Shown: in pieces, positions 782 through 19,946 of the stretch
Layout of the letters: each line of letters opens with the position of its first letter
How positions within the stretch are numbered: position 1 is the first letter of the stretch
Notes under the pieces: generated by a model
The model's input: the letters and a program-made list of their open reading frames with translations, nothing else
What the model was told of the DNA's origin: nothing
Databases searched by the model: none
From: a virus
Virus record (IMG/VR): IMGVR_UViG_3300023179_000017
Coordinates: 24,711 to 88,710 of that record
Length of the DNA: 64,000 bases
Reading direction: 5' to 3' (one strand)
Position numbers and translations under genes: made by a program

Positions 782-3700
782 ATGTCTTTTATAAAAAATA
801 CCGATGATTTTTTTGAGGGGCTTAGTAATAAATTTTTTACAAATGAGCGCGTTAAAAGCGCGGTTGAATCTGATTTAAACTCGTTAAGCGGTTCTATTAC
901 TGGCGAACAAGCCGCACGTCAATCAGATGTGTCAGGGCTTGATTCGAGACTTGATATTATCGAAGGGCCGAGTGGACAAGAGGGGTCAATTGCAAAGGCA
1001 TTAGTTGATGCCAAGTCTTACACTGATCAAGAAATTTCTGCTCTTGTGGGATCTGCTCCTGAAATTTTAGATACCCTTCAAGAACTATCCGAAGCTCTCT
1101 CTGGTGATGCAAGCTTTGCTCAAACTATCGCAGGTCAGATTAGCTCCTTAAGTGGTGCAATCGGAAGCGAAAGTGGAGCACGAGAAGCCGCTATCACTGG
1201 TCTTGACGCACGATTGGATATTATCGAAGGTCCAAGTGGACAAGCCGGATCAATTGAGAAGGCTCTGGCCGATGCAAAGTCTTACGCTGATACTGGGCTT
1301 GCTGGAAAAGTAGACGTTACTGTCAACTATGATATCCGGCCTGGTATTTATAGTGGCGGTAGCAAAAGCGCAAACTTCCAGATTGATTTTGCAAACGGAC
1401 CGACTCAAAAATTTACTCTGCAATCTAACGTCACGGTCACATTTGCAAATCCAGTAGCTGGCGGTATTTATACTTTACAACTAGTTCAAGACGGAACTGG
1501 TAGCAGACAAATTACATGGCCTCAAATTACTTGGGCTAATGGTTCTGCACCACACTTGTCATCTGCTGGTAAAGTTGACTTCATTCAAATGTGGTATGAC
1601 GGCACCACCTATTATGGTGACTACCAACTAGCTGACGTTACGTTTGCTACAACAGCTGCATTGTCAGCTGAAGCAAGCGGACTTGATGCTCGTTTAGATT
1701 TGTTGGAAGCTGACCCGACTACCAAGAGTTATGTAGACGAAGCTATCTCCGGTGAACAATCTGCAAGAGCTGCTGATGTCTCAGGACTTGATGCACGAAT
1801 CGACGCGCTTGAAGCAGATCCTACTACGAAGGCGTATGTAGACGGTGTTGCTTCTGGTCTCGATGCAAGACTCGATTCTTTAGAAGCTGACCCAACTACT
1901 AAAGCATACGTAGATGGTGCAGTCTCTGGTGAGCAGTCCGCCCGTCAATCGGCAGACCAAGCTCTTTCTGGAGCCATCACTGGCGAGATTGCTGCTCGTG
2001 AAGCGGCAGTTTCTGGTCTTGATTCCAGAATCGATGCTCTTGAAGCCGATCCTACTACTAAAGCATATGTAGACGGTGTTGCTTCCGGACTTGATGCGAG
2101 ATTGGATTCTCTCGAAGCTGACCCTGTTACAAAAGCTTATGTTGATGGTCAAGCTTCTGGTTTAGATGCAAGACTCGATGTCATCGAGGGACCAAGTGGA
2201 CAAGCCGGATCGATTGCTAAAGCGTTAGTAGACGCTAAAGCTTACACCGATCAGGAAGTCTCGGCTCTTGTAAATTCTGCACCTGAAGTTCTTAACACTT
2301 TAAAAGAGTTGGCAGATGCCCTCTCTGGTGATGCAAGTTTTGCATCGACCATTGCAGGACAAATCGGCTCTTTGAGTGGCGCTATCAGCACTGAGATTGG
2401 AAACCGCCAATCGGATGTTTCAGGTCTTGATGCAAGACTAGACGCTCTCGAAGCTGACCCGACTACCAAGTCTTATGTCGACGGACAAGTATCTGGGCTC
2501 GATTCACGAATTGATTCGTTGGAATTCGACTCAGTAACTAAAGCCTACGTCGACGGAGCTATCTCCGGAGAACAAGCCGCTCGTGTAGCGGATGTTTCCG
2601 GTTTAGATGCTCGTTTGGATGCCCTAGAAGCTGATCCTACTACAAAAGCATATGTAGATGGCGCAGTCTCTGGCGAACAAACACGGGCTCAGGGAGTTGA
2701 GCAATCGCTTAGCGGCGCAATCACTGGGGAACAAGCAGCTAGAGAAGCTGCAGTCTCCGGTCTTGATGCTCGCTTAGATGCTCTTGAGTCTGATCCAACT
2801 ACGAAAGCGTATGTAGACGGTCAGGTATCAGGACTCGATTCCCGTATCGATGCTCTTGAAGCAGATCCGGTAACTAAAGCGTATGTAGACGGAGCTATCT
2901 CTGGTGAGCAGTCAGCTCGTCAAGCAGACGTCTCTGGACTGGATGCTCGCTTAGATGCTCTCGAAGCAGATCCTACTACGAAGTCTTACGTCGACGGAGC
3001 TATCTCTGGTGAGCAATCCGCTCGCCAAGCAGATGTCTCAGGTCTTGATGCAAGACTTGATTCCTTGGAAGCTGACCCAGTAACCAAGTCATACGTAGAT
3101 GGACAGGCTTCGGGTCTCGATGCAAGACTCGATGTCATCGAAGGGCCAAGCGGACAAGCCGGATCTATTGCTAAAGCATTAGTTGATGCTAAAGCATATA
3201 CCGATCAAGAAGTCTCAGCTCTGGTTGACTCTGCACCAGAAGTGCTAAACACATTGAAAGAATTGGCAGATGCCCTTTCTGGAGATGCGCATTTTGCATC
3301 GACCGTTGCAGGACAGATTGGTTCCTTAAGTGGGGCGATTAGTTCTGAAATCGGAAACCGACAATCGGATGTCTCAGGTCTCGATGCAAGACTCGATGCA
3401 CTTGAAGCTGATCCGACTACTAAGGCATATGTTGACGGTGTTGCTTCAGGACTTGATGCGAGATTGGATTCGCTTGAAGCTGATCCGACTACTAAAGCAT
3501 ACGTAGATGGACAGGTCTCCGGACTCGATTCCAGAATCGATGCTCTTGAAGGTGTCACTGGAATGGCAACGGAAGCTTATGTCGATGCCGAGGTACTTGA
3601 ACAAGCGAAGTTCTTCGTTTCTGGTCAAGTAAGCTCGTTCTCTTCGAACACAAGCATCCAGTTCGGAACTTCGATGAGCCCTGGAACGCACTTTAACATG

Positions 3701-3943
3701 ATGCTTGCTATGGTTGATTGTTCAGGCGGTACAGTTACCATGACGCTTCCTTCAGCTTCGGCTGCAGGATCGGAAGGTAGACGCTTGAAATTCAAAGACA
3801 TGGGCAACGCGTCAATGAGCGGCTATGTAAGAGTTAGCGCTCAGGCGGGACAGACCATCGACGGCGCAGCATACTTCGATATGAAGGCTCCTTTTGAGTC
3901 TATCGAAGTTTACTGTGACGGAGATGAGTGGTTCATACTCTAA
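782..3943 (+). CDS. repeat-rich coiled-coil tail fibre-like protein
   Basis: SD AAGGA; many SGLD(A/S)R(L/I)DALEADPTTK(A/S)YVDG repeats; three copies of the APE(I/V)L(D/N)TLxEL(S/A)xAL fibre motif; internal beta domain paralogous to 11260..11691. Confidence 0.75.
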   Translation: MSFIKNTDDFFEGLSNKFFTNERVKSAVESDLNSLSGSITGEQAARQSDVSGLDSRLDIIEGPSGQEGSIAKALVDAKSYTDQEISALVGSAPEILDTLQELSEALSGDASFAQTIAGQISSLSGAIGSESGAREAAITGLDARLDIIEGPSGQAGSIEKALADAKSYADTGLAGKVDVTVNYDIRPGIYSGGSKSANFQIDFANGPTQKFTLQSNVTVTFANPVAGGIYTLQLVQDGTGSRQITWPQITWANGSAPHLSSAGKVDFIQMWYDGTTYYGDYQLADVTFATTAALSAEASGLDARLDLLEADPTTKSYVDEAISGEQSARAADVSGLDARIDALEADPTTKAYVDGVASGLDARLDSLEADPTTKAYVDGAVSGEQSARQSADQALSGAITGEIAAREAAVSGLDSRIDALEADPTTKAYVDGVASGLDARLDSLEADPVTKAYVDGQASGLDARLDVIEGPSGQAGSIAKALVDAKAYTDQEVSALVNSAPEVLNTLKELADALSGDASFASTIAGQIGSLSGAISTEIGNRQSDVSGLDARLDALEADPTTKSYVDGQVSGLDSRIDSLEFDSVTKAYVDGAISGEQAARVADVSGLDARLDALEADPTTKAYVDGAVSGEQTRAQGVEQSLSGAITGEQAAREAAVSGLDARLDALESDPTTKAYVDGQVSGLDSRIDALEADPVTKAYVDGAISGEQSARQADVSGLDARLDALEADPTTKSYVDGAISGEQSARQADVSGLDARLDSLEADPVTKSYVDGQASGLDARLDVIEGPSGQAGSIAKALVDAKAYTDQEVSALVDSAPEVLNTLKELADALSGDAHFASTVAGQIGSLSGAISSEIGNRQSDVSGLDARLDALEADPTTKAYVDGVASGLDARLDSLEADPTTKAYVDGQVSGLDSRIDALEGVTGMATEAYVDAEVLEQAKFFVSGQVSSFSSNTSIQFGTSMSPGTHFNMMLAMVDCSGGTVTMTLPSASAAGSEGRRLKFKDMGNASMSGYVRVSAQAGQTIDGAAYFDMKAPFESIEVYCDGDEWFIL

Positions 3944-3951
3944 TATAAATG

Positions 3952-3986
3952 AGTGGCCCTCTACAAAAGTGGGGGGCCACTTTTTA
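3952..3986 (+). terminator. intrinsic terminator
   Basis: agtggccctctac-aaaa-gtggggggccact stem (G-U pairs) plus ttttt. Confidence 0.8.
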
Positions 3987-4017
3987 TTACTCTTAATAAA
4001 TTCAACCCAAAGTTGTA

Positions 4018-4026
4018 TGATATAAT
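4018..4026 (+). promoter_or_regulatory. extended -10 promoter TGATATAAT
   Basis: perfect TGnTATAAT 21 nt upstream of an SD-led ATG. Confidence 0.7.
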
Positions 4027-4047
4027 TACCTAATCTTGGAGAAGACC

Positions 4048-4215
4048 ATGAAAAAATTATTTTTAGCTTTGATCTTAGCTTTCGCAGTAACAGGGTGTAA
4101 CCCAATGGCCCACCACGAGTGCTGCCACCACGAACACCACCACTGCTGTGAGCACCATTGCAAGTGCGAACATCACCACTGCAAGCACCACCACTGTGAG
4201 TGCGAACACCACTAA
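4048..4215 (+). CDS. His/Cys-rich lipopeptide (55 aa), metallothionein/Hpn-like; not in ORF track
   Basis: MKKLFLALILAFAVTG-C NPMAHHECCHHEHHHCCEHHCKCEHHHCKHHHCECEHH; SD GGAG; lipobox VTGC; repeat variation is synonymous in this frame. Confidence 0.8.
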   Translation: MKKLFLALILAFAVTGCNPMAHHECCHHEHHHCCEHHCKCEHHHCKHHHCECEHH

Positions 4216-4253
4216 GTAATTAGTTTTTATACCTTTTTATTTAAGGGATCAGA

Positions 4254-7200
4254 ATGAAACGTAGACTAGTTCTTATTAAAAAGGCTGCAAGTGGTAATTT
4301 AAGTCCTGTAATTACCATCTCTGCTCAACCCACAAATCAATCAACATCAGACGGAAATGCAAGCTTCTCAGTAACGGCAAGCGTTACGGAGGGGGCAACA
4401 CTTTCGTATCAGTGGCAACGAAGTACCGACGCAGGAACAACTTTCTCGGCTTTGTCTGGAGAGACTTCGAATAGCTTATCCCTAAGTTCAATTACGGTTT
4501 TGTCTGATCAATATCAATATCGTTGCGTAGTATCTGCTACGGGCGGTGCTGCGAGTGTCAATTCGTCTTCAGCTACTCTTTCGGTTGTTCCAGCTATTAC
4601 GGTTTCTGCTCAACCACAAGCTTCGACAACATCGGAAGCATTAGGCACATCTTCCTTCTCAGTTACAGCAAGCGCATCGGTTGGTGGAACTATATCTTAT
4701 CAGTGGCAACGAAGTACAGATGGGACTAGCTTTTCAAACCTAAGTGGAGAAACCAATAGTTCTTTAAGTTTGAGCAGTCTCACATACGCTACCAACAATC
4801 AAAACCAATATCGTTGCGTGGTGTCTGGCAATTACAACGCATCTTCTGTCACTTCAAGCGCAGCAGTTTTGACTGTTTATGATTCGACAACTGCGATGGC
4901 CACATGGACATCGGCAACACTAAGCGGTTCTTATGGTGGTCTTACTTATGCTAAAGAACTGGGATTGTTTGTAGCAGTCGGGGGCAGTACCACTAGGGCC
5001 AGCGTATCAAATGATGGAACGAATTGGAGTGATACAACTGGAGCAGTAGTAAATCTACAGACAGTAGCATGGTCTCCTGAGCTTGGAATGTTCGCAGCAG
5101 TGGGAAACATTGGTGGGATTGCTACTTCTTATGATGGTTACAACTGGACACAGAGAACATCTCCAACAACAAACAATTTAAAAAGGGTTCGTTGGATTCC
5201 AGAAAAAGGATTTTTTCTAGCCTGTTCTACAGCCGTTTCCGCTTCTAATAAATTTGTTAAATCCACAGATGGTATTACTTGGACTGGATTTAGTGGGCCA
5301 TCAACCGAAGCCGTTTATGACTTTGACTATGCTCCAAGTTTAAATTCATTTTTCGCTCTTGGTTACAGTTCAAATAAGATTTTTACATCTTCAGATGGTG
5401 AAACTTGGACAACAAGTGCATCCACAATGCCTAGTTCTGGAACTTGGTATGCAATTAAATGGTCTTCTCAAAAATCCTTATTTGTCGCTGGGGCGTGGGA
5501 TGGTGGATATTTAGCAACATCTCCAGATGGTGCGAATTGGACAACTAGAACCAAAGTAGACACAACCCAGTCTGGTGTTACGGCTATTGATTATTCACCA
5601 GAGTTGGGCTACTTCGCAATGAGCATAAATGGCAATGCTGGCTATAATAGAGTTCACATATCACCAGATGGCATCAACTGGACTGGAAAAATATCTTCTA
5701 GTGCAGCTAACTGGGATGTTTGCTGGTCTTCTGATGTGGGAAAATTTGTCTGTATCGGTGGTAGCGGGTTCACTGCAACATCGACCAGTGTTTACAGTGC
5801 ATCCAATGTCATTAAGCTTACTGCTTTCACATTACCATCTACATACAGAAACGATACTGCAAGCTCATCTTATATTGCGACAGCATCAATAGCTTCTGGC
5901 AGCATCTCTTATCAATGGGAAAAGAGTACAAATTCTGGTGTAAGTTTTTCAAGCGTAGCTGGTGCAACGGCTGGAACGCTAACCCTTACCCAAACAGAAC
6001 GAAATGCTGCGGTCGATGGATCTCATTTTTACAGATTAAAAATGACATCTGCGACAGCCAAGTACAGTCCAGTCTATGCTGGATATTTTGTACCATCAGC
6101 AAATGATGCAATTTACTATGTCAGTAATTGGTCTTCGTCTTCCCTAACCAACCAAAACTGGTATTCTATCTGTTATGCCAAAGAGCTTGGTCTTTTTGTT
6201 GCTGTATCTTCTACTGGTACAAACAGAATTGCAGTTTCAAACAATGGAACAACTTGGACAGAGCTAACAGGACAAGCTGCATCGGCCTACGCACTTAACT
6301 ATGTCGCATGGTCGCCAACATTAGGAATGTTTGTAGCCGTGGGATCTTCTGGTTCAATTTTCACTTCTTATGATGGGTATAACTGGACACAGAGAACTTC
6401 ACCCACTACCTCAAATCAGCTTTATACTGTCAAATGGATTGCAGAAAAAAGCTTCTTTTTGATTACATCAAATAGTGCTGGGACGGCTAATAAGATTTTA
6501 AAATCCACAGATGGTATTACTTGGACTGGGTATTCTTCCCTAAGCACTACCGCTCTTTCGGACTTTGATTATTCACCATCTCTTGATTTGATAGTTGTGC
6601 AAGTTTATGGTGCCAGCAATTTTATCACTTCTTCGGATGGTCAAAACTGGTCATCTGTTTCGGTAGGATCGGGTACAAATAGAAACTGGGACGGGATAAA
6701 ATGGTCTGCCTCGCAAGGCAAGTTCGTGGCGACTTCATCAAATAGCAATTCCGTTGCAACATCGACAGATGGAACTAACTGGACGATAGTTTCTACTGGT
6801 GTTTCGCTAAACAAAATTGATTATTCTCCAGAGTTTAATTTATATGTTTCAAACACTGTAAATACGGGAGGCTCGACAAAAGTTTGGAGTTCTCCAGATG
6901 GTGTTACTTGGACTGCCCGTGGCCCCTCTCTTGGCACTTCAGTAACATTTAGAAACATTCTGTGGGTTCCTGATTATAAAAAGTTTTATGCCATATCACA
7001 AGACGGGGCGCAGTTAACTTCTGCCACTGTTTCAGATCCAGAAAATGTTATTAAATTGTCTTCGTTCTCTCTGCCTACAATCACATATAGAAATAATACT
7101 GCGAATACAACTTATGTAACTACTTCAACAATCGCTTCTGGTTCAATTTCTTATCAGTGGCAGTTGAGTACAAACTCAGGATCAACTTTCTCAGATGTTG

Positions 7201-10200
7201 CTGGAGCTACGAGCAGCACCCTAACGCTTTCTCAGGCTGATAGAAATGCAGCCCTAGACGCAGGTAATTATGTCTACAGATTAAAAATGACATCTGCCAC
7301 AGCTAAGTATAGTCCAGTTTATGCTGGATATTACGATGCTAGGGTTCAAGAAAATAATATTTATGCGCTAAATAATTACAACTTAGGATCTATTTCTGAC
7401 TCAAGTTGGGCTGGGCTTGTTTGGTCTTCTAAGCGTGGCGTTTTTGTAACCGCATCTTTTAGTGGTAACGACAAAATCGCAGTATCAGCAAACGGCCTGA
7501 ATTGGCAGTATGTTAATACCGACACCTCTGGGGCTACTATAACCCCAGGAAACGCAGAATTGGTATATTCAGAAGAAAAAGATCTGTTTGTGCAATCTGG
7601 GCCATCTAGTTATGTTTATACTTCAACAGACGGTTTGAATTGGACTCAAAGAGCATCTTCAACAACCCAAACATTAGCGAGCGGTGCCTACTCCCCTTCC
7701 TTGGGGCTTTTTGTTTATGTATCGAGAACTGCTACGTCTAACGTAGTGGTAACATCGTCTAATGGAACTACTTGGTCAAACTCCTCTACTGGGGTTTCAC
7801 AAGCCATGTGGGGTGTCGCATGGTCTCCCACATTAGGATTATTCGCAGCAGTAGGGGACAATGGGACAATCATCACTTCAACTAATGGAACTTCTTGGAC
7901 AACAAGAACCTCTCCCAACACGAACGCATACAAGTCTATCGCATGGTCTCCCACATTAGGAATGTTCGCAGCAGTATCAAATGGTGGAACCAATAGGGTC
8001 ATGACATCTACGGATGGCATCACTTGGACTGCAAGGACTTCAGCAGCAGAAACCTACGCATGGAGAAGAATAATTTGGGTTTCCGATCTGGGGATGTTTG
8101 TCGCAGGGTCAGAGTCAACTGGAGTGAGTTGTGTTATGTACTCTGCCAATGGCACATCTTGGACTTTAAGCGCAATCAACAACAGATCGACCACTTCTTC
8201 AGTGACTGGGTTGGCTTGGTCTTCAGAGCTAAAACGCTTGGGTCAAGTTGGTTTTTATGGAACAGGAGTTAGAAACTACGCAACTGCTGATATTTACACC
8301 AACAAAACAACCGTTGCAGGATTTACTGCGCTACCAAAATTAACAACCACAAACTACCTGTCTTCGACAGCAGATGTCACCCTGTCTTCAACTGCACTTG
8401 TTTCGGACGGAAGCTCCCCAAGCTATCAGTGGCAACGAAGTTCTGACAACGGATCTACTTGGGCTGATTTGTCTGAAAAAACATCTGCAAACCTTGTTTT
8501 AACTGATGCCGAATCAGAAACCGCTTCAACAAGTAATTACAAGTATCGAGTTAAAGTTTTAAACGGCACAAACAACTTAATAAGTACCACATTTTCTGTT
8601 GTCGTACAGTCTGATGGCGTTTATGCCGTCAACAACTGGACGGTTTCATCACCAGGAGATCGCTACTGGTGTGGTGTCGCATGGTCTCCTAAGTTAGGCT
8701 TATTCGCAGCAGTGTCTTATGCAGATGCCTCTTCGGCCACGACTTTACAAAGAGTTAGGATTGGAATTTCAAAAGACGGGGTTAATTGGACTTACCCAAC
8801 CTACTGGTCTACTAGCGGATTTTTTCCAAACGACATTTTGTGGGTTGGTGGTTCTGTAAATATGTTTGTAGTTGTTGGCCAAGTTTGTATTTTAACCTCT
8901 CCAGACGGTATCAACTGGACTTCAAGAAAAAACACAAATATGTTGATTTGGGAAACAGCCGCATATTCTTCTACCCAAGGAATTGTTGCCGTTTTTAATG
9001 GCACCTATGCCGCAAACGCTGTTTTAAAAAGCACCAACGGTATTACTTGGACGACAAGTGCTGGGCTTGGTTTTACGCAAGCTATGTGGGGTATCGCATG
9101 GTCTCCTTCTCTTAGCTTGTTTGTAATGGTTGGAGCGGGTGGAAGAATTATGTCGTCACCAGATGGTACGACATGGACTCAAAGAACTAGCAATACGACC
9201 AACACTCTAACTTCGATTGCTTGGTCTCCAGAACTAAGTCTTTTTGTAGCTGTTGCAAACACTGGAACGAGCCGAGTGGTCACATCACCAGACGGTATCA
9301 ACTGGACGACAAGGACTTCGGCAGCAGAAACCTACTCATGGAGAAAAGTAATTTGGGTTTCTGATCTGGGATTGTTTATAGCTGGAGCACAAACCACAGT
9401 AGCAAATAACTTAATGTATTCTTCAGATGGAATTAACTGGAGTATTGCATCAATGTCACCATCGGCTACGGCTGCTTGGAGAGTGCCGATGGCATGGTCT
9501 CCAGAGTTAAAACGACTTTTAGTTCTTTCTCAAAGCACCACACAGAACGCAGTTGGAACTGCGGCGTTAAGTGCTGACATATTTGCTGGCAAGACAAGCT
9601 ATATGTCAATCACGGCTGCTCCTTCAAACTACGAAACATGGCTTGATAACACTGCAAGCACCACGCTTACTGCGGCAGCATCGGTTTCGACGGGGGCTAC
9701 ACCAAGCTATCAGTGGCAACGAAGTTCTGACAATGGAACGAATTGGAGTGACTTAGCAGGACAAACTTCAACAAGCCTTGTTTTAACTGATGCAGAAACA
9801 GAAACGGCTTCCACAAATAGTTATAAGTATCGTTTCAGTGCATCATCGGCTGGAATTTCGAACTCACCAGTAGTAAGTGATAAGGTTTCTCTAACAGTAA
9901 GAAGCACTACAAAAGATTACTGTGTTGAAAATTGGACGATGTATTCGGCTGCCAATAGCAATCAATTAAGATCTGTTGTTTGGGCTCCGAGCTTGTCACT
10001 CTTTTGTGCAATTGGGGATAGTGGAACTAATAACAGAGCGCAAACATCTCCAGATGGTATCACTTGGACTGTGAGAACTACTCCGTCTGCTGCAAACAAT
10101 AACTGGCAAGGTTTGGCCTGGTCTCCAGAGCTAAGTCTTTTTGTAGCTGTTGCTGGATCTGGAACCAATAACAGAGTCATGACATCTCCAGACGGTATTA

Positions 10201-11108
10201 CTTGGACTGCAAGGACTTCGGCAGCAGACAATAACTGGCAAAGCGTATGCTGGTCTAAAGAAAAAACTTTATTTGTAGCTGTTGCTGGATCTGGAACCAA
10301 TAACAGAGTCATGACATCTCCAGACGGTATTGCTTGGACTGCAAGGACTTCGGCACAAGACAATAATTGGACATCGGTGTGTTGGTCGCCAACCGCCAAT
10401 GGTACTGGTCTTTTTGTGGCAGTATCAAATGGTGGAACCAATAGGGTTATGACATCCCCTGATGGTATCAACTGGACAGTAAGAACATCGTCTATCACCA
10501 CATATTGCGTGTGCTGGTCGGCAGAAGTGGGATTGTTTGTGGCTGCTGGATTTAATAGCATGGCCACATCTCCAGACGGTATTAACTGGACTTTAAGAAA
10601 TCCAGCAGCGATCGCTGCGGGGGCTTTCGTATCTGTCTGCTGGTCAAAAGAACTTGGGCTCTTTTGTGCCTTCCCATCTGCAACGTCAAATGGAAAAGTG
10701 GTCACATCACCAGACGGTATCAACTGGACTGCAAGAATGTCACAACAAGATGTATTTTTCCAATCACAGTTTTTTGGAAATGGTATCGCATGGTCTCCAG
10801 GCGTAGGTCGTTTCGTCCAAGTTGGTTTGTATGCTAACATGAGCGCAATAGTTTCAAACGTCTATATGGCAACACCCGCTTTCAGTTTAGCTGCTGGCAC
10901 CTATACAGGAACTCAGTCAGTTACACTTAGCGTGGCAAATTCTGGGGCAACAATTTACTACACAACCGACGGTAGTACGCCAACAACGTCGTCTACGGTA
11001 TATTCGGGGGCTATTTCTGTACCAAGCAGCAGAACCATAAAAGCGATTGCAGTTAAATCGGGATACCCAGATTCAACTATCGCCTCGGCTGCTTATACAA
11101 TTAACTAG
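4254..11108 (+). CDS. giant adhesin/fibre-like protein: Ig-like domains, Asp-box beta-propellers, C-terminal CHB_HEX_C/Fn3-associated domain
   Basis: TISAQP...YQWQRSTD...YQYRCVVS Ig repeats; dozens of S(P/S/T)DGxxWT Asp-box repeats; C-terminal ATPAFS...TIYYTTDGSTPT...IKAIAVK. Confidence 0.8.
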   Translation: MKRRLVLIKKAASGNLSPVITISAQPTNQSTSDGNASFSVTASVTEGATLSYQWQRSTDAGTTFSALSGETSNSLSLSSITVLSDQYQYRCVVSATGGAASVNSSSATLSVVPAITVSAQPQASTTSEALGTSSFSVTASASVGGTISYQWQRSTDGTSFSNLSGETNSSLSLSSLTYATNNQNQYRCVVSGNYNASSVTSSAAVLTVYDSTTAMATWTSATLSGSYGGLTYAKELGLFVAVGGSTTRASVSNDGTNWSDTTGAVVNLQTVAWSPELGMFAAVGNIGGIATSYDGYNWTQRTSPTTNNLKRVRWIPEKGFFLACSTAVSASNKFVKSTDGITWTGFSGPSTEAVYDFDYAPSLNSFFALGYSSNKIFTSSDGETWTTSASTMPSSGTWYAIKWSSQKSLFVAGAWDGGYLATSPDGANWTTRTKVDTTQSGVTAIDYSPELGYFAMSINGNAGYNRVHISPDGINWTGKISSSAANWDVCWSSDVGKFVCIGGSGFTATSTSVYSASNVIKLTAFTLPSTYRNDTASSSYIATASIASGSISYQWEKSTNSGVSFSSVAGATAGTLTLTQTERNAAVDGSHFYRLKMTSATAKYSPVYAGYFVPSANDAIYYVSNWSSSSLTNQNWYSICYAKELGLFVAVSSTGTNRIAVSNNGTTWTELTGQAASAYALNYVAWSPTLGMFVAVGSSGSIFTSYDGYNWTQRTSPTTSNQLYTVKWIAEKSFFLITSNSAGTANKILKSTDGITWTGYSSLSTTALSDFDYSPSLDLIVVQVYGASNFITSSDGQNWSSVSVGSGTNRNWDGIKWSASQGKFVATSSNSNSVATSTDGTNWTIVSTGVSLNKIDYSPEFNLYVSNTVNTGGSTKVWSSPDGVTWTARGPSLGTSVTFRNILWVPDYKKFYAISQDGAQLTSATVSDPENVIKLSSFSLPTITYRNNTANTTYVTTSTIASGSISYQWQLSTNSGSTFSDVAGATSSTLTLSQADRNAALDAGNYVYRLKMTSATAKYSPVYAGYYDARVQENNIYALNNYNLGSISDSSWAGLVWSSKRGVFVTASFSGNDKIAVSANGLNWQYVNTDTSGATITPGNAELVYSEEKDLFVQSGPSSYVYTSTDGLNWTQRASSTTQTLASGAYSPSLGLFVYVSRTATSNVVVTSSNGTTWSNSSTGVSQAMWGVAWSPTLGLFAAVGDNGTIITSTNGTSWTTRTSPNTNAYKSIAWSPTLGMFAAVSNGGTNRVMTSTDGITWTARTSAAETYAWRRIIWVSDLGMFVAGSESTGVSCVMYSANGTSWTLSAINNRSTTSSVTGLAWSSELKRLGQVGFYGTGVRNYATADIYTNKTTVAGFTALPKLTTTNYLSSTADVTLSSTALVSDGSSPSYQWQRSSDNGSTWADLSEKTSANLVLTDAESETASTSNYKYRVKVLNGTNNLISTTFSVVVQSDGVYAVNNWTVSSPGDRYWCGVAWSPKLGLFAAVSYADASSATTLQRVRIGISKDGVNWTYPTYWSTSGFFPNDILWVGGSVNMFVVVGQVCILTSPDGINWTSRKNTNMLIWETAAYSSTQGIVAVFNGTYAANAVLKSTNGITWTTSAGLGFTQAMWGIAWSPSLSLFVMVGAGGRIMSSPDGTTWTQRTSNTTNTLTSIAWSPELSLFVAVANTGTSRVVTSPDGINWTTRTSAAETYSWRKVIWVSDLGLFIAGAQTTVANNLMYSSDGINWSIASMSPSATAAWRVPMAWSPELKRLLVLSQSTTQNAVGTAALSADIFAGKTSYMSITAAPSNYETWLDNTASTTLTAAASVSTGATPSYQWQRSSDNGTNWSDLAGQTSTSLVLTDAETETASTNSYKYRFSASSAGISNSPVVSDKVSLTVRSTTKDYCVENWTMYSAANSNQLRSVVWAPSLSLFCAIGDSGTNNRAQTSPDGITWTVRTTPSAANNNWQGLAWSPELSLFVAVAGSGTNNRVMTSPDGITWTARTSAADNNWQSVCWSKEKTLFVAVAGSGTNNRVMTSPDGIAWTARTSAQDNNWTSVCWSPTANGTGLFVAVSNGGTNRVMTSPDGINWTVRTSSITTYCVCWSAEVGLFVAAGFNSMATSPDGINWTLRNPAAIAAGAFVSVCWSKELGLFCAFPSATSNGKVVTSPDGINWTARMSQQDVFFQSQFFGNGIAWSPGVGRFVQVGLYANMSAIVSNVYMATPAFSLAAGTYTGTQSVTLSVANSGATIYYTTDGSTPTTSSTVYSGAISVPSSRTIKAIAVKSGYPDSTIASAAYTIN
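10140..10355 (+). repeat. near-identical 84-nt duplication with 132-nt period (one propeller blade)
   Basis: 10140-10223 vs 10272-10355 differ only at a10200/g10332. Confidence 0.85.
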
Positions 11109-11259: not shown

Positions 11260-11691
11260 ATGGCCTATAAACCGCCTAGCCAGAACATCATTGATAACGA
11301 GACTGGAGCAATACCGAGCTCTGAGGCGGTATTTGAGGCCTTACGACAAAAGGTAGATGTCACAAGTGGTTACGATATCAACCCCCAATTCTATAACGCT
11401 GGAAGCGTTACCGGGAGCTTTGCCGTAGATTTTGCCTTAGGCCCGGTTCAGCAGGTCACTTTATCCGCAAGTGGCGAGCACCAAGCCTCCTTTAGTAACC
11501 CAGTTCTAGGCGGCGTATATATGCTTAAAATCGTCCACGATGGGTTAAGCGGAACGATTAGCTGGCCTGAGACCGTCAGGTGGCCCGCAGAAGGGGAACC
11601 CACCCTAAGCGCCTCCTCAGGCACTATAGACCTCGTTAGCTTTGTCTACGATGGCAGCGATTACTTTGGTTCCTATTCCTTAGGTTATTGA
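11260..11691 (+). CDS. small fibre-associated beta-domain protein
   Basis: SD AAGGA; VDFALGPVQQVTL...FSNPVLGGVYMLKIVHDG...W...IDLVSFVYDG matches the internal domain of 782..3943. Confidence 0.75.
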   Translation: MAYKPPSQNIIDNETGAIPSSEAVFEALRQKVDVTSGYDINPQFYNAGSVTGSFAVDFALGPVQQVTLSASGEHQASFSNPVLGGVYMLKIVHDGLSGTISWPETVRWPAEGEPTLSASSGTIDLVSFVYDGSDYFGSYSLGY

Positions 11692-12801: not shown

Positions 12802-13202
12802 AATACAAAATATTGAAAGACGGCCTTGTGCAAGGCGGGTCAGCTCAATACCTGTATGACGAAGACGGACAAATATTCTGGGAGGCGAGCATTAAAGTGG
12901 GGATGGGTTTTTTAGCTAAAACCTATTCTAAAAAGGGTACCCTTCTTTTAGAGGACCCCGACTTAATGCTTTCTGAAAACCTAAAAGAAGGCATGGAGCA
13001 TATCTTTGGCCCCGTCCTTATTAAAACCATTAAGCGTGGGGAAGACGGGCTTATGGAATGTCTCATCAGCGTCGAAGGCGGGGCTATAGAAGGTCCCGTC
13101 TTTGTCGACTACTCAGACCACTATATCAATCCTCGGCACGCTGAAATCGTAGCGAAGGTATCCGGCCTTACCCTAAATATTAAACTGGTGCCTGAAGAAT
13201 GA
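12798..13202 (+). CDS. hypothetical protein
   Basis: 134-aa ORF in a translationally coupled chain. Confidence 0.7.
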   Translation: MKYKILKDGLVQGGSAQYLYDEDGQIFWEASIKVGMGFLAKTYSKKGTLLLEDPDLMLSENLKEGMEHIFGPVLIKTIKRGEDGLMECLISVEGGAIEGPVFVDYSDHYINPRHAEIVAKVSGLTLNIKLVPEE

Positions 13203-13208
13203 TATAAT
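13200..13208 (+). promoter_or_regulatory. extended -10 promoter TGATATAAT
   Basis: same 9-mer as at 4018; upstream of SD GGGGAG and rmlB. Confidence 0.7.
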
Positions 13209-13240: not shown

Positions 13241-14218
13241 ATGAAGTACATGGTCACCGGCGGTCACGGCTTTATTGGATCAAACCTTTGTAGGCTCCTT
13301 CTAGAACAAAATAAAGATATCGTTGTTGTCGATTCCCTCACCTACGCCTCAAACCAAGCCTACTTAAAGAATTGGGCCAAAGAGAATAATAAAAAGTTTG
13401 AAGAAGAAATCCTAGATATCAGAGACCACGTTTCTGTCGCAAGGATGATGCAAAAACATAAGCCCGATGTCATTTTTCATTTAGCCGCTGAAAGCCATGT
13501 TTGCCGAAGCATCTCTGGGCCCAAAGACTTTGTCACAACAAACGTTCTAGGCACCTTTCATTTGATTGAAGAGTTTCGGCAGCTTTGGGGAGATAACGCT
13601 TCTAAAAAGTTTGTTCACGTTTCAACTGATGAGGTCTACGGGGAGCTTGAGCTAAACGAGCCGCCTTTTTGTGAATATACTCCAATCAAACCTAGAAGCC
13701 CCTATTCCGCCACAAAAGCCGGAAGCGATCACATCGTCCAGTCTTACTTTCACACCTACGGTGTTTCGACCATCATTACGAATTGCTCGAACAACTTTGG
13801 TCCCAACCAGCATAAAGAAAAACTAATTCCTGCAACCATTCAACGCCTTCATAGAAATAAACCTGTAAGGCTTTATGGCAACGGCCAGAATATCCGCGAC
13901 TGGCTCTGGGTGGAAGACCATGCAAGAGGCCTTATGCTTCTTGCTGAAAAAGGAACGCCTGGTCAAAAGTATTGCATTGGGGGTGAGTGTGAAAAAACTA
14001 ACCTCCAAATTATCAACGCTGTCTTTGACGCTATGGCTACAAGATTTGGAAAATTAGAACTTACTATTGAATTTACAAACGACAGGCCGACAGATGATAA
14101 AAGATATGCTATTAATTGCGACAGACTAAAAGCACTGGGCTGGGCCCCGTCCAGCAATTTAAAAGAAAATCTCTTGAAGACAGTCGATTATTATTTGGTA
14201 GAATTTAAACGGGGTTGA
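13241..14218 (+). CDS. rmlB: dTDP-glucose 4,6-dehydratase
   Basis: VTGGHGFIGSN, DSLTYAS, HLAAESHV, HVSTDEVYG, PYSATKAGSD, TNCSNNFGP, GQNIRDWLWVEDH, DKRYAI. Confidence 0.93.
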   Translation: MKYMVTGGHGFIGSNLCRLLLEQNKDIVVVDSLTYASNQAYLKNWAKENNKKFEEEILDIRDHVSVARMMQKHKPDVIFHLAAESHVCRSISGPKDFVTTNVLGTFHLIEEFRQLWGDNASKKFVHVSTDEVYGELELNEPPFCEYTPIKPRSPYSATKAGSDHIVQSYFHTYGVSTIITNCSNNFGPNQHKEKLIPATIQRLHRNKPVRLYGNGQNIRDWLWVEDHARGLMLLAEKGTPGQKYCIGGECEKTNLQIINAVFDAMATRFGKLELTIEFTNDRPTDDKRYAINCDRLKALGWAPSSNLKENLLKTVDYYLVEFKRG

Positions 14219-17173: not shown

Positions 17174-17515
17174 ATGAATCCTACACCCGAACAATGGGGA
17201 ACAGTTGTCGTTAATTTAACCAAGGGCGAACTGGGGATTTTAGCTGCTGTTGGAATTGCCGTTCAATTTTTGATGCTATTATTAAAAGGCCCCTTAGGAG
17301 AAAAAGCAGGTAAGTGGAGGCTTATGGCGGTCTCTGGGCTTACAATGGTGGGCTGTGTACTCGCTCTAAGAACGCAGGGAATGGACTGGGCGTCTATTTT
17401 AGCCCACTCTTCTACCCTTGCTGCATCACAAGTTTTTATTCATCAAATTTTTAAACAAAGCTCTGAACAGCCTGTTAATGAGGTGGCAGAGCCAAAAAGA
17501 AGAAAAAGAAAATGA
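17174..17515 (+). CDS. holin-like membrane protein
   Basis: SD AAGGAG; 2-3 hydrophobic helices; basic C-terminus PKRRKRK. Confidence 0.55.
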   Translation: MNPTPEQWGTVVVNLTKGELGILAAVGIAVQFLMLLLKGPLGEKAGKWRLMAVSGLTMVGCVLALRTQGMDWASILAHSSTLAASQVFIHQIFKQSSEQPVNEVAEPKRRKRK

Positions 17516-17850
17516 ACGACTTATTTAAGGAGCTGGTTTTTGATGTGGTCATAAAAGAAGCGATTAGGCGTCTTTTTTTAGCAGTTCCGTTTCTAGAAAT
17601 GGGGCCAATTGGATACATTGTAAGCCTTCTTTTGACCCGATTTGCTGATAGCCTTTATGAGTATCAAAAGACGGTTGTTCGGTTTTACAAGTTTGAGTTT
17701 GTTAATTCCAAGAATCAAAAACAATTTGATCAAGAAATGAAAAACTTGCAAACATTACAAAAAAACCCAAATGCCACACCAGAGGAAATAAATGAAGCCA
17801 TTCAAAAAGCTAAAGAACGCTTGGCCGATCTTGTTCGTTATTCTAGCTAG
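17512..17850 (+). CDS. hypothetical protein, possibly i-spanin-like
   Basis: N-terminal hydrophobic stretch plus coiled coil; overlaps the downstream lipoprotein gene. Confidence 0.45.
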   Translation: MNDLFKELVFDVVIKEAIRRLFLAVPFLEMGPIGYIVSLLLTRFADSLYEYQKTVVRFYKFEFVNSKNQKQFDQEMKNLQTLQKNPNATPEEINEAIQKAKERLADLVRYSS

Positions 17851-18133
17851 TTGTTCAACAACTGTAACAATTCCTGATGTGGAGTGGTGCACTTCTACTG
17901 GAAACCACGGGGCTATATGCCAGAACTCTTCTTCAGATACCAACCGTACCCTAACTGATAAAGAGTGGATTGATTTTTTAGAAAATGGGCCCGCACTTTG
18001 TACTTCTTCGAAAGACTTTTCAAGAATTAAGACTGCTATCCAGCAGCTCTGCAATGAAAACTCCAAATGCAAATTTGAGACGTTGAAGGCAACTTTTAAA
18101 AGGCTTGATAAACTTAGTTCTCGAAACCGTTAA
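17792..18133 (+). CDS. lipoprotein, o-spanin (Rz1)-like
   Basis: lipobox ILASC, additional Cys residues, overlaps the 3' end of the previous gene. Confidence 0.55.
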   Translation: MKPFKKLKNAWPILFVILASCSTTVTIPDVEWCTSTGNHGAICQNSSSDTNRTLTDKEWIDFLENGPALCTSSKDFSRIKTAIQQLCNENSKCKFETLKATFKRLDKLSSRNR

Positions 18134-18845
18134 AGCCTTCTGCCAAATGCTCGACAGAGTAGAACTTAAGGCCATTTCTAAACATCTCCATAGATAAGGA
18201 CAGTGATCCACCAGGGCCAGTCTTTCCACCTCTTGGAAACACAGGACCACCCGAAACTTCGTGGTGTCCAAAAATGTTTTCTATTTTAAACCTATCGTGC
18301 GGGTCGTTTGCTTGAAGCCAAACTAAAAGCGACCAGAGCGCTCTTTCTTGTTCGATACTAAACGTATGATAGTAGCCAGGCTCACATCCGTAAGAGCCTT
18401 CTACTTTTCTAACTTCATACTGGGGAACGATAATTCCGTTTTTATTTTTATAAAGGCCATTTCGGTGCGGCTCTACTTTTCCTGCCCCACAAAGAGATAT
18501 CCCGATGAGTTTTGAAGAGAGGCTCTTTCCTAACGACGGCCAGTAGCTTTGGCCGGCATGATATCCCCATTCATTTAAAGAGTGGGCTTGGACGAGTTTA
18601 CCGTCCCTACTAATACACAAGAACGTATACTCATCAGATATACCAGCTTGCACAGCGTCGAGAGCGTCTTGAAGACCTTTCTGGCTTGAGCCTCCGGTTG
18701 CGTGAATAATAGCCCCTGCCGGATATCCGTCGGCGTAAAGTCCGCGGGTCGGCATTGTTTCACGTGGAACAATGGCTTTAGGGTGCCACAAAAACAAGTG
18801 CCCAGGCTCATCATCCGTAGGTCGATGCTTTTCTTTTTTCGACAT
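18114..18845 (-). CDS. N-acetylmuramoyl-L-alanine amidase (Amidase_2) fold, third Zn ligand apparently lost
   Basis: AIIHATGG, YTFLCISRDG, GYHAG, IGISL, IFGHHEV; KTGPG in place of KxDPG/KxCPG. Confidence 0.75.
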   Translation of the reverse strand: MSKKEKHRPTDDEPGHLFLWHPKAIVPRETMPTRGLYADGYPAGAIIHATGGSSQKGLQDALDAVQAGISDEYTFLCISRDGKLVQAHSLNEWGYHAGQSYWPSLGKSLSSKLIGISLCGAGKVEPHRNGLYKNKNGIIVPQYEVRKVEGSYGCEPGYYHTFSIEQERALWSLLVWLQANDPHDRFKIENIFGHHEVSGGPVFPRGGKTGPGGSLSLSMEMFRNGLKFYSVEHLAEGFNGFEN

Positions 18846-18871: not shown

Positions 18872-19909
18872 CTAACCCCACATTTTTTGTAAGATATCTT
18901 TTCGAAGAACGTTTACTTTTTCTAAGGTCAGGGTGTCTTGAACAAATTCCCAGCCCTCTTGGGCAAGTTTTAAGGTGTCTACTTCACCTCGCATAACTAA
19001 ATCGAGTTTATCCGCAAAGTCTTTTTGGTCCTTGTAGTTGATAATACCAGGCCTTCGCCACTCTTCCCAATCTGGACCCAAACACGCAGCGCCCGCATGA
19101 ATGCCCTCAATCCAAGCAATGTTGGACTTAGAGTGGTTGAATGGACAATTCCAAAGGGGAACAAACACCAGGCTCGGATTAAAATTATTAAGGGCTTTCC
19201 AATAATCAACGGGATCTAGTGGATTGGTAAGCTTTAACTGTTCTATACTAAATCCCTCAATCGACAACATTTGTTCGACAGTGTACCAAAAGTGATGGCC
19301 CACAAAATTAATCGACCAATCTTTGAAGTGTCTGGCATAGGCGTGCTTTAAAGCTGCCGTATATACCCACAAATCTTTGTCATGCGTGTTGCTGCCTCGC
19401 CACAAAATCATCTTATTTTGTTTAGTTGTTGGGGTTCTGCCCACCGCAAAGGCTTGATTATAGGCATTTGGAATTACTTGTATTTTGTCCGGGTTTGAAC
19501 TGCTTTTAATCTGGTTTAACACCCAGCGCATTCTATTTGCAAGCGCTGCAGTAGAAACCGAGACATGGTCTGCCGTATCAATCATCCGTCCCACAAGTTG
19601 TCTTACCGAAGATTGCGAATAAAGCTTAAAAGCCCTATTTTCAAAGGGAACTGCAAACAGGTCGTCATCGTAATCAATCCAAACCTTTTTCCCATTAGCT
19701 TTTGCCATATTCATGATGTTTAGGTGCGCCCCCGAATAGGGGCGCTGCATAAAGATTGCGTCCACATAAGAAAGCTTCACCCAATCAATCGAATCTCCCT
19801 TTTCCATATAAAAGTCACATTCTTTCATTAAAGGAGAAAGAGGGCCGAAAGCTCTATAAAACGAGGTTGAATCAGTCGGGTGCGGGGCAAAAACTAGAAG
19901 GGTTTTCAT
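18872..19909 (-). CDS. GT-B (GT4-like) glycosyltransferase
   Basis: FYRAFGPL, IFMQRP, WIDYDDDLF, VSVSTAAL, VIPNA, ILWRGS, FNHSKSNIAWIE; start set at MKTLL. Confidence 0.75.
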   Translation of the reverse strand: MKTLLVFAPHPTDSTSFYRAFGPLSPLMKECDFYMEKGDSIDWVKLSYVDAIFMQRPYSGAHLNIMNMAKANGKKVWIDYDDDLFAVPFENRAFKLYSQSSVRQLVGRMIDTADHVSVSTAALANRMRWVLNQIKSSSNPDKIQVIPNAYNQAFAVGRTPTTKQNKMILWRGSNTHDKDLWVYTAALKHAYARHFKDWSINFVGHHFWYTVEQMLSIEGFSIEQLKLTNPLDPVDYWKALNNFNPSLVFVPLWNCPFNHSKSNIAWIEGIHAGAACLGPDWEEWRRPGIINYKDQKDFADKLDLVMRGEVDTLKLAQEGWEFVQDTLTLEKVNVLRKDILQKMWG

Positions 19910-19946
19910 GGTTTTTATTATATCATTTCTTAGATACAATACCTCT
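19910..19946. promoter_or_regulatory. back-to-back promoters for two apparently leaderless genes
   Basis: minus strand TGATATAAT (19925-19917) 7 nt before ATG 19909; plus strand TACAAT (19935-19940) 6 nt before ATG 19947; no SD on either side. Confidence 0.6.

Follow-up and report, generated by a model that had tools for sequence, protein, structure and literature searches.

What is encoded in the 310-nt gap between two plus-strand fibre-type genes of an uncultured freshwater phage? The gap lies in a window of 64,000 nt, positions 24,711 to 88,710 of the viral record IMGVR_UViG_3300023179_000017, and runs from the stop of one gene at 3943 to the start of the next at 4254 (window coordinates). 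It is otherwise empty, and is filled by an unannotated open reading frame (ORF) of 55 codons, P0001, at 4048-4215. The weight of the evidence tips towards P0001 being a genuine gene of the phage that encodes a very small lipoprotein. To much the same degree, the features of its sequence favour an envelope lipopeptide that would chelate several Zn, Ni, Cu or Co ions, with metal handling as its function. The record itself is 152,336 bp long (43% G+C, rated complete by CheckV), and the phage was found in lake-water and freshwater metagenomes of two studies. The features of the locus are as follows.

3951-3990, plus strand: predicted intrinsic terminator of the upstream fibre gene (14-bp stem, 4-nt loop and T run; consensus scan).
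4018-4026, plus strand: extended −10 promoter box TGATATAAT, perfect and without a recognisable −35 box (read directly).
4038-4041, plus strand: Shine-Dalgarno sequence GGAG, 6 nt ahead of the ATG at 4048 (read directly).
4048-4215, plus strand: P0001, predicted lipoprotein precursor of 55 residues, ATG at 4048 and TAA at 4213-4215 (translation).
4048-4098, plus strand: predicted type II signal peptide (residues 1-16) and lipobox Cys17, A-V-T-G-C (Pfam LPAM_1; lipobox rule).
4105-4212, plus strand: His/Cys/Glu tail of 36 residues, M20-H55 (composition count).
4131-4212, plus strand: tandem repeat of 36 nt (12 codons) in 2.3 copies (Tandem Repeats Finder; 78% matches, no indels).

The promoter, GGAG, ATG and signal peptide are aligned in one frame, directly 3′ of a strong terminator, and the ORF starts 105 nt past the stop of the upstream fibre gene. 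A start codon, ribosome site and signal peptide go with the His/Cys frame only. A first-pass annotation of this DNA, made from the letters alone, had described a 55-residue ORF with a GGAG site, and both are found as it said (4048-4215, plus strand, and 4038-4041). The span that it gave for the unit, 4018-4215, has the correct end, but 4018 is the start of the promoter box and the ORF begins at 4048. Strong GGAG/GAGG-type sites accompany about 30% of crude gene calls in the phage genome.

The N-terminus has the organization of bacterial lipoprotein precursors, the substrates of Lgt and LspA. A charged n-region (K2, K3) is followed by an uncharged h-region (L4-V14) and by A-V-T-G-C, which puts the Cys at position 17. 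Residues 1-17 score 22.8 bits against Pfam LPAM_1 (gathering score 20) and satisfy a PROSITE PS51257-type rule (K/R in the first seven residues, uncharged h-region, [LVI][ASTVI][GAS]-C, Cys at 15-35), which upholds the earlier claim of a type II signal peptide ending VTG-C. The same rule is satisfied by only five of the 1255 ATG-started ORFs of at least 40 residues in the six frames of the 152-kb genome (0.4%), and two of these five besides P0001 also look like real lipoproteins. Another clear phage lipoprotein, of 219 residues, is encoded outside the window (G000:C1:141697-142356, minus strand); it has the lipobox I-S-A-C, and its mature part is charged and coiled-coil-like.

Two other ways of reading the gap were rejected. 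The TTG at 4036 directly precedes the ribosome site at 4038-4041, so that with this start GGAG would fall inside the frame. A hydrophobic reverse-strand ORF of 45 codons (4075-4212, minus strand), nearly all Val, Ala, Leu and Phe, was judged non-coding, given its GTG start, its lack of a ribosome site, its orientation opposite to all neighbours and its composition, the expected mirror of CAC/TGC codons. A third possibility, a start at the internal Met20 (ATG at 4105), would yield a 36-residue cytoplasmic peptide resembling the metal binder Hpn, instead of the lipoprotein or besides it. The tail does open with Met-Ala and then His-His-Glu, and Hpn-type binders are cytoplasmic (PMC5312948); however, no good ribosome site precedes ATG 4105, just a GGG about 10 nt upstream, whereas ATG 4048 has both GGAG and a canonical signal peptide. 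We regard the internal start as very improbable.

The tail (residues 20-55), preceded by Cys17-Asn-Pro, contains 17 His, 9 Cys, 6 Glu, 2 Lys, 1 Met and 1 Ala, exactly the count first reported. At 47% His and 25% Cys it is far from the long ORFs of the phage (1.6% His, 0.85% Cys). Its best 20-residue stretch is 80% His plus Cys, against 45% for the runner-up among all ORFs in the six frames of the genome, and the composition is not due to chance. The 26 His and Cys side chains, potential metal ligands, are arranged in two CC and two CxC motifs and seven HH/HHH clusters, with E-C-C at residues 24-26 and H-C-C-E at residues 32-35. Metal binding is the most economical reading of 36 residues so composed, and it is because of this composition that a role in metal buffering or capture is proposed.

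Most of the tail is built from the tandem repeat, whose units read, in order, E-H-H-H-C-C-E-H-H-C-K-C, E-H-H-H-C-K-H-H-H-C-E-C and E-H-H. The two full copies differ at nine of 36 bases (three first, one second and five third codon positions), which amounts to three synonymous and three non-synonymous codon differences; the replacements all stay within H/C/E/K and none creates a stop. This divergence is suggestive, being compatible with selection on composition, but the counts are far too small for a selection test. The first-pass annotation had placed the variation at third positions and concluded that the protein was under selection; third positions do account for five of the nine differences, and the remaining four, with the three replaced codons, make that statement too strong.

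Contigs from four DNA runs (Logan; two studies) are identical across 4001-4326, a segment that includes the ORF, and because of this identity the ORF sequence is not an assembly accident of a single sample. It also leaves a population test of synonymous against non-synonymous change without material, and assembled contigs drop rare variants; no RNA run is among the runs listed as holding the stretch. In run X5 the contigs break within 3951-4001, at the terminator and the spacer before the promoter, and the upstream fibre repeats differ, while the ORF itself is identical. In all four runs the fibre repeats at 3000-3550 are either very polymorphic or wrongly assembled.

The hairpin of the predicted terminator (3951-3982) has a folding energy of −26.8 kcal/mol (z = −6.7), a value that no shuffled sequence out of 200 attained. 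Chance would give 0.29 copies of the 9-mer TGATATAAT in the window, which has three. Of the genome's six TGnTATAAT sites, four closely precede start codons and another occupies a divergent intergenic region, a distribution that suggests a class of host-sigma-70-type promoters in this phage. The placement of the ORF behind a promoter and after a terminator, between two fibre-type genes, is as the first-pass annotation had it. A consensus scan found no terminator-like site between the end of the ORF and the next gene (4215-4254); the predicted mRNA at 4034-4290 has an unremarkable fold (z = −1.3), and no terminator was found after the downstream gene, which encodes 2284 residues. The ORF is probably the promoter-proximal cistron of a longer transcript, its promoter probably also driving the 2284-residue gene. 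Because no terminator follows the ORF, it would be the first cistron of a fibre operon and not a closed promoter-gene-terminator moron. The label "moron-like", applied earlier, is weak: the closing terminator is missing, and a search of the phage genome for a tyrosine integrase found none. The phage looks lytic, and the lack of this integrase makes a role in lysogenic conversion unlikely.

The position of so unusual a coding sequence immediately 5′ of a 6.9-kb gene, with which it would be co-transcribed, recalls regulatory leader peptides. Ribosomes could stall at its 17 His and 10 Cys codons when His- or Cys-tRNA is short, which would tune the giant gene in the manner of the his operon attenuator. 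Such a run of two rare amino acids is extreme, and the phage encodes no tRNA genes. Nevertheless, the terminator/antiterminator hairpins of a hisL-type leader are absent at and after the end of the ORF, in keeping with the unremarkable fold given above, and a complete lipoprotein signal peptide would be useless in a leader; we find this explanation hardly credible.

Comparison with known systems places P0001 between several kinds of protein. One of them is Hpn, a cytoplasmic protein with 46.7% His and two EEGCC motifs, which binds two to six Ni2+ and whose Cys-Cys motif is described as the anchoring site (PMC5312948). Like Hpn and the His/Cys-rich C-terminus of HspA, the tail of P0001 is very small and about half His, with His in clusters of two or three and acidic residues beside Cys-Cys (E24-C25-C26 and C33-C34-E35). 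Unlike Hpn, which has no signal peptide, P0001 has a lipoprotein signal, more than twice the Cys share (25%) and a phage origin, and it shows no detectable sequence relationship to Hpn; its predicted location is also not cytoplasmic. The metallothioneins (SmtA/BmtA, MymT) share with the tail a low mass, the lack of a hydrophobic core, internal repeats and a Cys content of about 25%, within their range of about 15-30%, with CC and CxC motifs. In P0001, however, His outnumbers Cys two to one, the protein is predicted to be exported and lipid-anchored and not cytosolic, and no curated metallothionein model in Pfam or NCBIfam matches it.

Exported His-rich proteins that bind several ions are also known, among them SmbP (PMC10893511) and SilE (PMC5008109), and SilE is disordered without metal (PMC5008109). 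SmbP of Nitrosomonas europaea and SilE/PcoE are exported, as P0001 is predicted to be, and like it are small, repeat-built and rich in His and acidic residues. P0001 likewise lacks a confident fold: a single-sequence AlphaFold2 model has a mean predicted local distance difference test score (pLDDT) of 52.6 and contains the signal-peptide helix only. This is consistent with a metal-dependent structure, and is no proof of one. In contrast to P0001, which is predicted to be lipid-anchored, is Cys-rich and lies among phage fibre genes, SmbP and SilE/PcoE are soluble, contain no Cys and are encoded by chromosomal or plasmid genes in settings of metal resistance.

A metagenome scan yielded one bacterial analogue, a lipoprotein of 101 residues on a Bacteroidota-like contig (L066, ORF P0004, 1453-1755), encoded between genes for a sialidase-like lipoprotein and for pyruvate:ferredoxin oxidoreductase. 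As in P0001, its signal peptide leads directly into a tail made of repeats in which Cys, His and acidic residues abound; there are three of these repeats, each about 25 residues long and rich in Cys, Glu, Lys and His. Unlike P0001 it is bacterial and longer, and Cys, Glu and Lys predominate in it, His being scarce. The two align at 41% identity over 54 residues, mainly through the signal peptide, which was the search key, and through composition. A family search with the bacterial protein returned only a fragment of itself, and no family was built. We treat it as an analogue; it shows that the architecture occurs in cells.

No homologue of P0001 was detected in any collection searched. These were 50,697 phage records (tblastn, the check that the first-pass annotation had proposed), 5.8 billion proteins (word-indexed search) and 1.84 billion representatives (phmmer), together with IMG/VR and 185,579 species genomes, both scanned with the back-translated peptide. 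The best PDB sequence was a chance match (phmmer, E 0.53), the best ESM Atlas score was 0.75, under the useful range, and the mature tail found no relative in Pfam, NCBIfam, PHROGs or PADLOC. The three phage records nearest to this one, Salmonella phage Arash, Vibrio phage D69 and the viral contig L006, contain no match to P0001, and queries with the adhesin and portal proteins led to distant loci only. Degenerate DNA patterns for HHHCxHHHC and HHCxCEHH hit 57 loci in IMG/VR, mostly off-frame repeats and none with a start codon and signal peptide. It should be noted that the composition correction in HMMER may hide real relatives of so biased a sequence.

On this evidence P0001 appears to fit no named family, those defined by sequence failing when its membership is tested. 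It is best filed as joining two known kinds, the His/Cys-rich metal binders and the small phage lipoproteins, in a combination that we have not found described. Metal binders rich in His and Cys, exported metal sponges and small phage lipoproteins encoded next to receptor-binding genes are each well known; a full-text literature search for phage-encoded metallothionein-like proteins, which was not exhaustive, returned nothing relevant, and no phage gene joining the three was found described.

In the mechanism that we favour, host RNA polymerase would start at the extended −10 box and the ORF would be translated as the first cistron, the transcript running on into the giant adhesin gene. The precursor would be exported by Sec and receive diacylglycerol at Cys17 from Lgt; signal peptidase II (LspA) would cut before Cys17 and Lnt would acylate the new N-terminus. 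With Asn and no Asp at position +2, transfer to the outer membrane by Lol would follow if the rules of E. coli apply. The mature lipopeptide of 38-39 residues, lacking a hydrophobic core, could then wrap several ions of the borderline or soft metals (Zn2+, Ni2+, Co2+, Cu+/2+) in its 17 His, 9 free Cys and 6 Glu. P0001 would thus resemble a lipid-anchored hybrid of Hpn and metallothionein, and would change the amount of free metal held or captured by the infected cell's envelope. From this the phage might gain protection, a scarce trace metal or something else. The observation in the first-pass annotation is confirmed, and its interpretation as a metal sponge is supported in part and plausible from the sequence.

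Several points weigh against the proposal. Transcription, translation, lipidation and metal binding are all read from sequence, and with no homologue the conservation of the frame has no comparison, since P0001 is an ORFan in every collection searched. Nine thiols in an oxidizing periplasm may form disulfides instead of binding metal, and it is hard to see what a lytic phage would gain by buffering metal in the periplasm. The position by a fibre gene fits receptor blocking at least as well (PMC9586334). Finally, the His/Cys frame is not the only open one in the tail DNA: the +1 frame (Thr/Ala/Ser-rich) and the reverse strand (Val/Ala-rich) are open too, although such openness is expected of CAC/TGC repeat DNA, and repeat expansion could have produced the ORF recently or neutrally.

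The last of these points can be put as an explanation of its own, that a CAC/TGC-rich tandem repeat arose in the spacer between the fibre genes, happens to be open behind an ATG and does nothing. The promoter and ribosome site would then serve the giant gene, as the lack of an intervening terminator allows, and both the ORFan status and the young look of the 36-nt repeat, open in two other frames, are as this account would have them. Against it, a full in-frame type II signal peptide is unlikely by chance, at 0.4% of ORFs and with an LPAM_1 score above threshold. GGAG is ideally spaced for ATG 4048, whereas the downstream gene has its own ribosome site, AAGGGA, at 4242-4247. The repeat copies, moreover, have diverged at a quarter of their bases and still encode H/C/E/K without a stop, and the sequence is identical in contigs of two studies. 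We consider a non-functional ORF unlikely.

The genes on either side of P0001 bear on a further alternative.

782-3943, plus strand: tail-fibre gene, 1053 residues, with coiled-coil repeats and a C-terminal tip domain (phrog_1197, 2631, 7032 and other tail-fibre PHROGs).
4254-11108, plus strand: virion adhesin/fibre-like gene, 2284 residues, with N-terminal Hoc-like/virion structural Ig domains and C-terminal CHB_HEX_C and Fn3_assoc.

The C-terminal ~120 residues of the upstream fibre (about 930-1053) share 29-39% identity with the very C-terminal ends of fibres encoded on smaller freshwater viral contigs, as a distal tip should. The downstream protein carries many Asp-box-like S/T-x-D-G-x-x-W-T repeats, enough for several predicted β-propeller units, and CHB_HEX_C is carbohydrate-binding; on its domains it is a virion protein of the adhesin type, unusually large for one. 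In separate observations, phrog_9017 (tail fibre protein) is matched both by window positions 11260-11691 and by residues 205-282 of the upstream fibre. The 145-residue gene that follows the homologous fibres in other contigs (L002-L004) has a similar module, A-N-F-x-L-D-F-A-N-G-P. The phrog_9017-type module looks like a small module shared among fibres.

Small phage lipoprotein genes directly after receptor-binding genes are classically superinfection-exclusion factors; in T5, llp directly follows the receptor-binding gene pb5, and its product, a small lipoprotein of the periplasm, jams FhuA (PMC9586334). P0001 could be of the same kind as Llp of T5 or Cor of T1, phi80 and N15. Expressed from the genome as it enters the cell, and anchored at the periplasmic face of the outer membrane, it would bind the phage's own receptor (e.g., a TonB-dependent transporter), stop further adsorption and injection and prevent loss of progeny on debris, metal serving only to fold the mini-domain or to aid docking on a metal transporter. 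The gene order, directly 3′ of a fibre gene with a distal tip, is that of llp after pb5 (PMC9586334), the phage looks lytic as T5 is, and a sigma-70-type promoter permits early expression by host polymerase. The sole family match of P0001 besides the lipobox is also to Cor (phrog_1119, E 5e-4). This weak match, however, is confined to positions 1-28 in protein and profile alike (the profile has 78 positions), mostly signal peptide, and the tail alone matches nothing in PHROGs even at E 10. The mature part of P0001 is about 20 residues shorter than those of Llp and Cor and wholly different in composition, these proteins not being His/Cys-rich and Llp having a normal core and one disulfide (PMC9586334). 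In addition, the fibres with homologous tips in L002-L004 are followed by the 145-residue gene, and by no lipoprotein gene. Exclusion or receptor masking as the function is on the whole doubtful, though a serious alternative. The first-pass annotation had listed receptor blocking as one of three purposes of its metal sponge, without the Llp precedent.

Metal handling and receptor masking are not mutually exclusive, and it is tempting to combine them. P0001 might be a metallo-lipopeptide, the first from a virus, which crosses Hpn with metallothionein on a lipid anchor and rewires trace-metal traffic in the envelope. It would act either as an auxiliary metabolic gene product capturing scarce Zn, Ni or Co in lake water, or as a metal-loaded plug jamming a TonB-dependent metal transporter that is also the receptor of the neighbouring fibre. 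We advance this fuller proposal only tentatively, as a possibility that we would sooner doubt than hold. A parallel for an auxiliary metabolic gene that captures metal is PstS of cyanophages, which captures phosphate. If the peptide is made, it would represent a new phage accessory function, either the manipulation of trace metals or a masking of the receptor that depends on metal, in fresh waters where growth is limited by trace metals. It would also offer a simple, synthesizable 38-residue model of metal binding at a membrane surface. Since ORFs of fewer than 60 codons with extreme composition escape both gene callers and bias-corrected homology searches, such genes may be commoner than empty searches suggest.

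A small lipoprotein with several Cys could, lastly, belong to lysis. The window contains a lysis-cassette-like region at 17174-18845, some 13-14 kb downstream of the ORF, in which the amidase only has database support.

Within 17174-18845: holin-like protein, 113 residues, with two predicted transmembrane domains and a KRRKRK tail.
17512-17850: protein of 112 residues with a single predicted transmembrane domain, overlapped by the next gene, with which it forms a spanin-like pair.
17792-18133: predicted lipoprotein gene, 113 residues, lipobox L-A-S-C, the partner in that pair.
18114-18845, minus strand: convergent Amidase_2 gene.

P0001 would in this case be an o-spanin-like or outer-membrane-disrupting lipopeptide acting late in infection. 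O-spanins such as lambda Rz1 form intermolecular disulfides, and the several Cys of P0001 are a point of likeness. The ORF is, however, outside the lysis region, 14 kb from the Amidase_2 gene, beside which a candidate spanin pair is already present; no i-spanin partner flanks it, its neighbours being the fibre and adhesin genes, and with one Pro it is not Pro-rich. A lysis function is scarcely plausible. The candidate spanin pair of this cassette, together with the hosts of the nearest cultured relatives, suggests a Gram-negative (diderm) host with a periplasm: by terminase and portal the nearest cultured phages are Salmonella phage Arash and Vibrio phages D69, D181 and D148, at about 30% identity.

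Further copies of TGATATAAT lie near other genes of the phage. One, at 13200-13208 (plus strand), is 32 nt before an RmlB-like gene at 13241, and another is in a divergent intergenic region outside the window (G000:C1:142321-142329, plus strand). The copy at 19917-19925 (minus strand) is only 7 nt ahead of a minus-strand ATG near 19909, and because of this short distance the glycosyltransferase-like gene starting there could be expressed from a leaderless mRNA.

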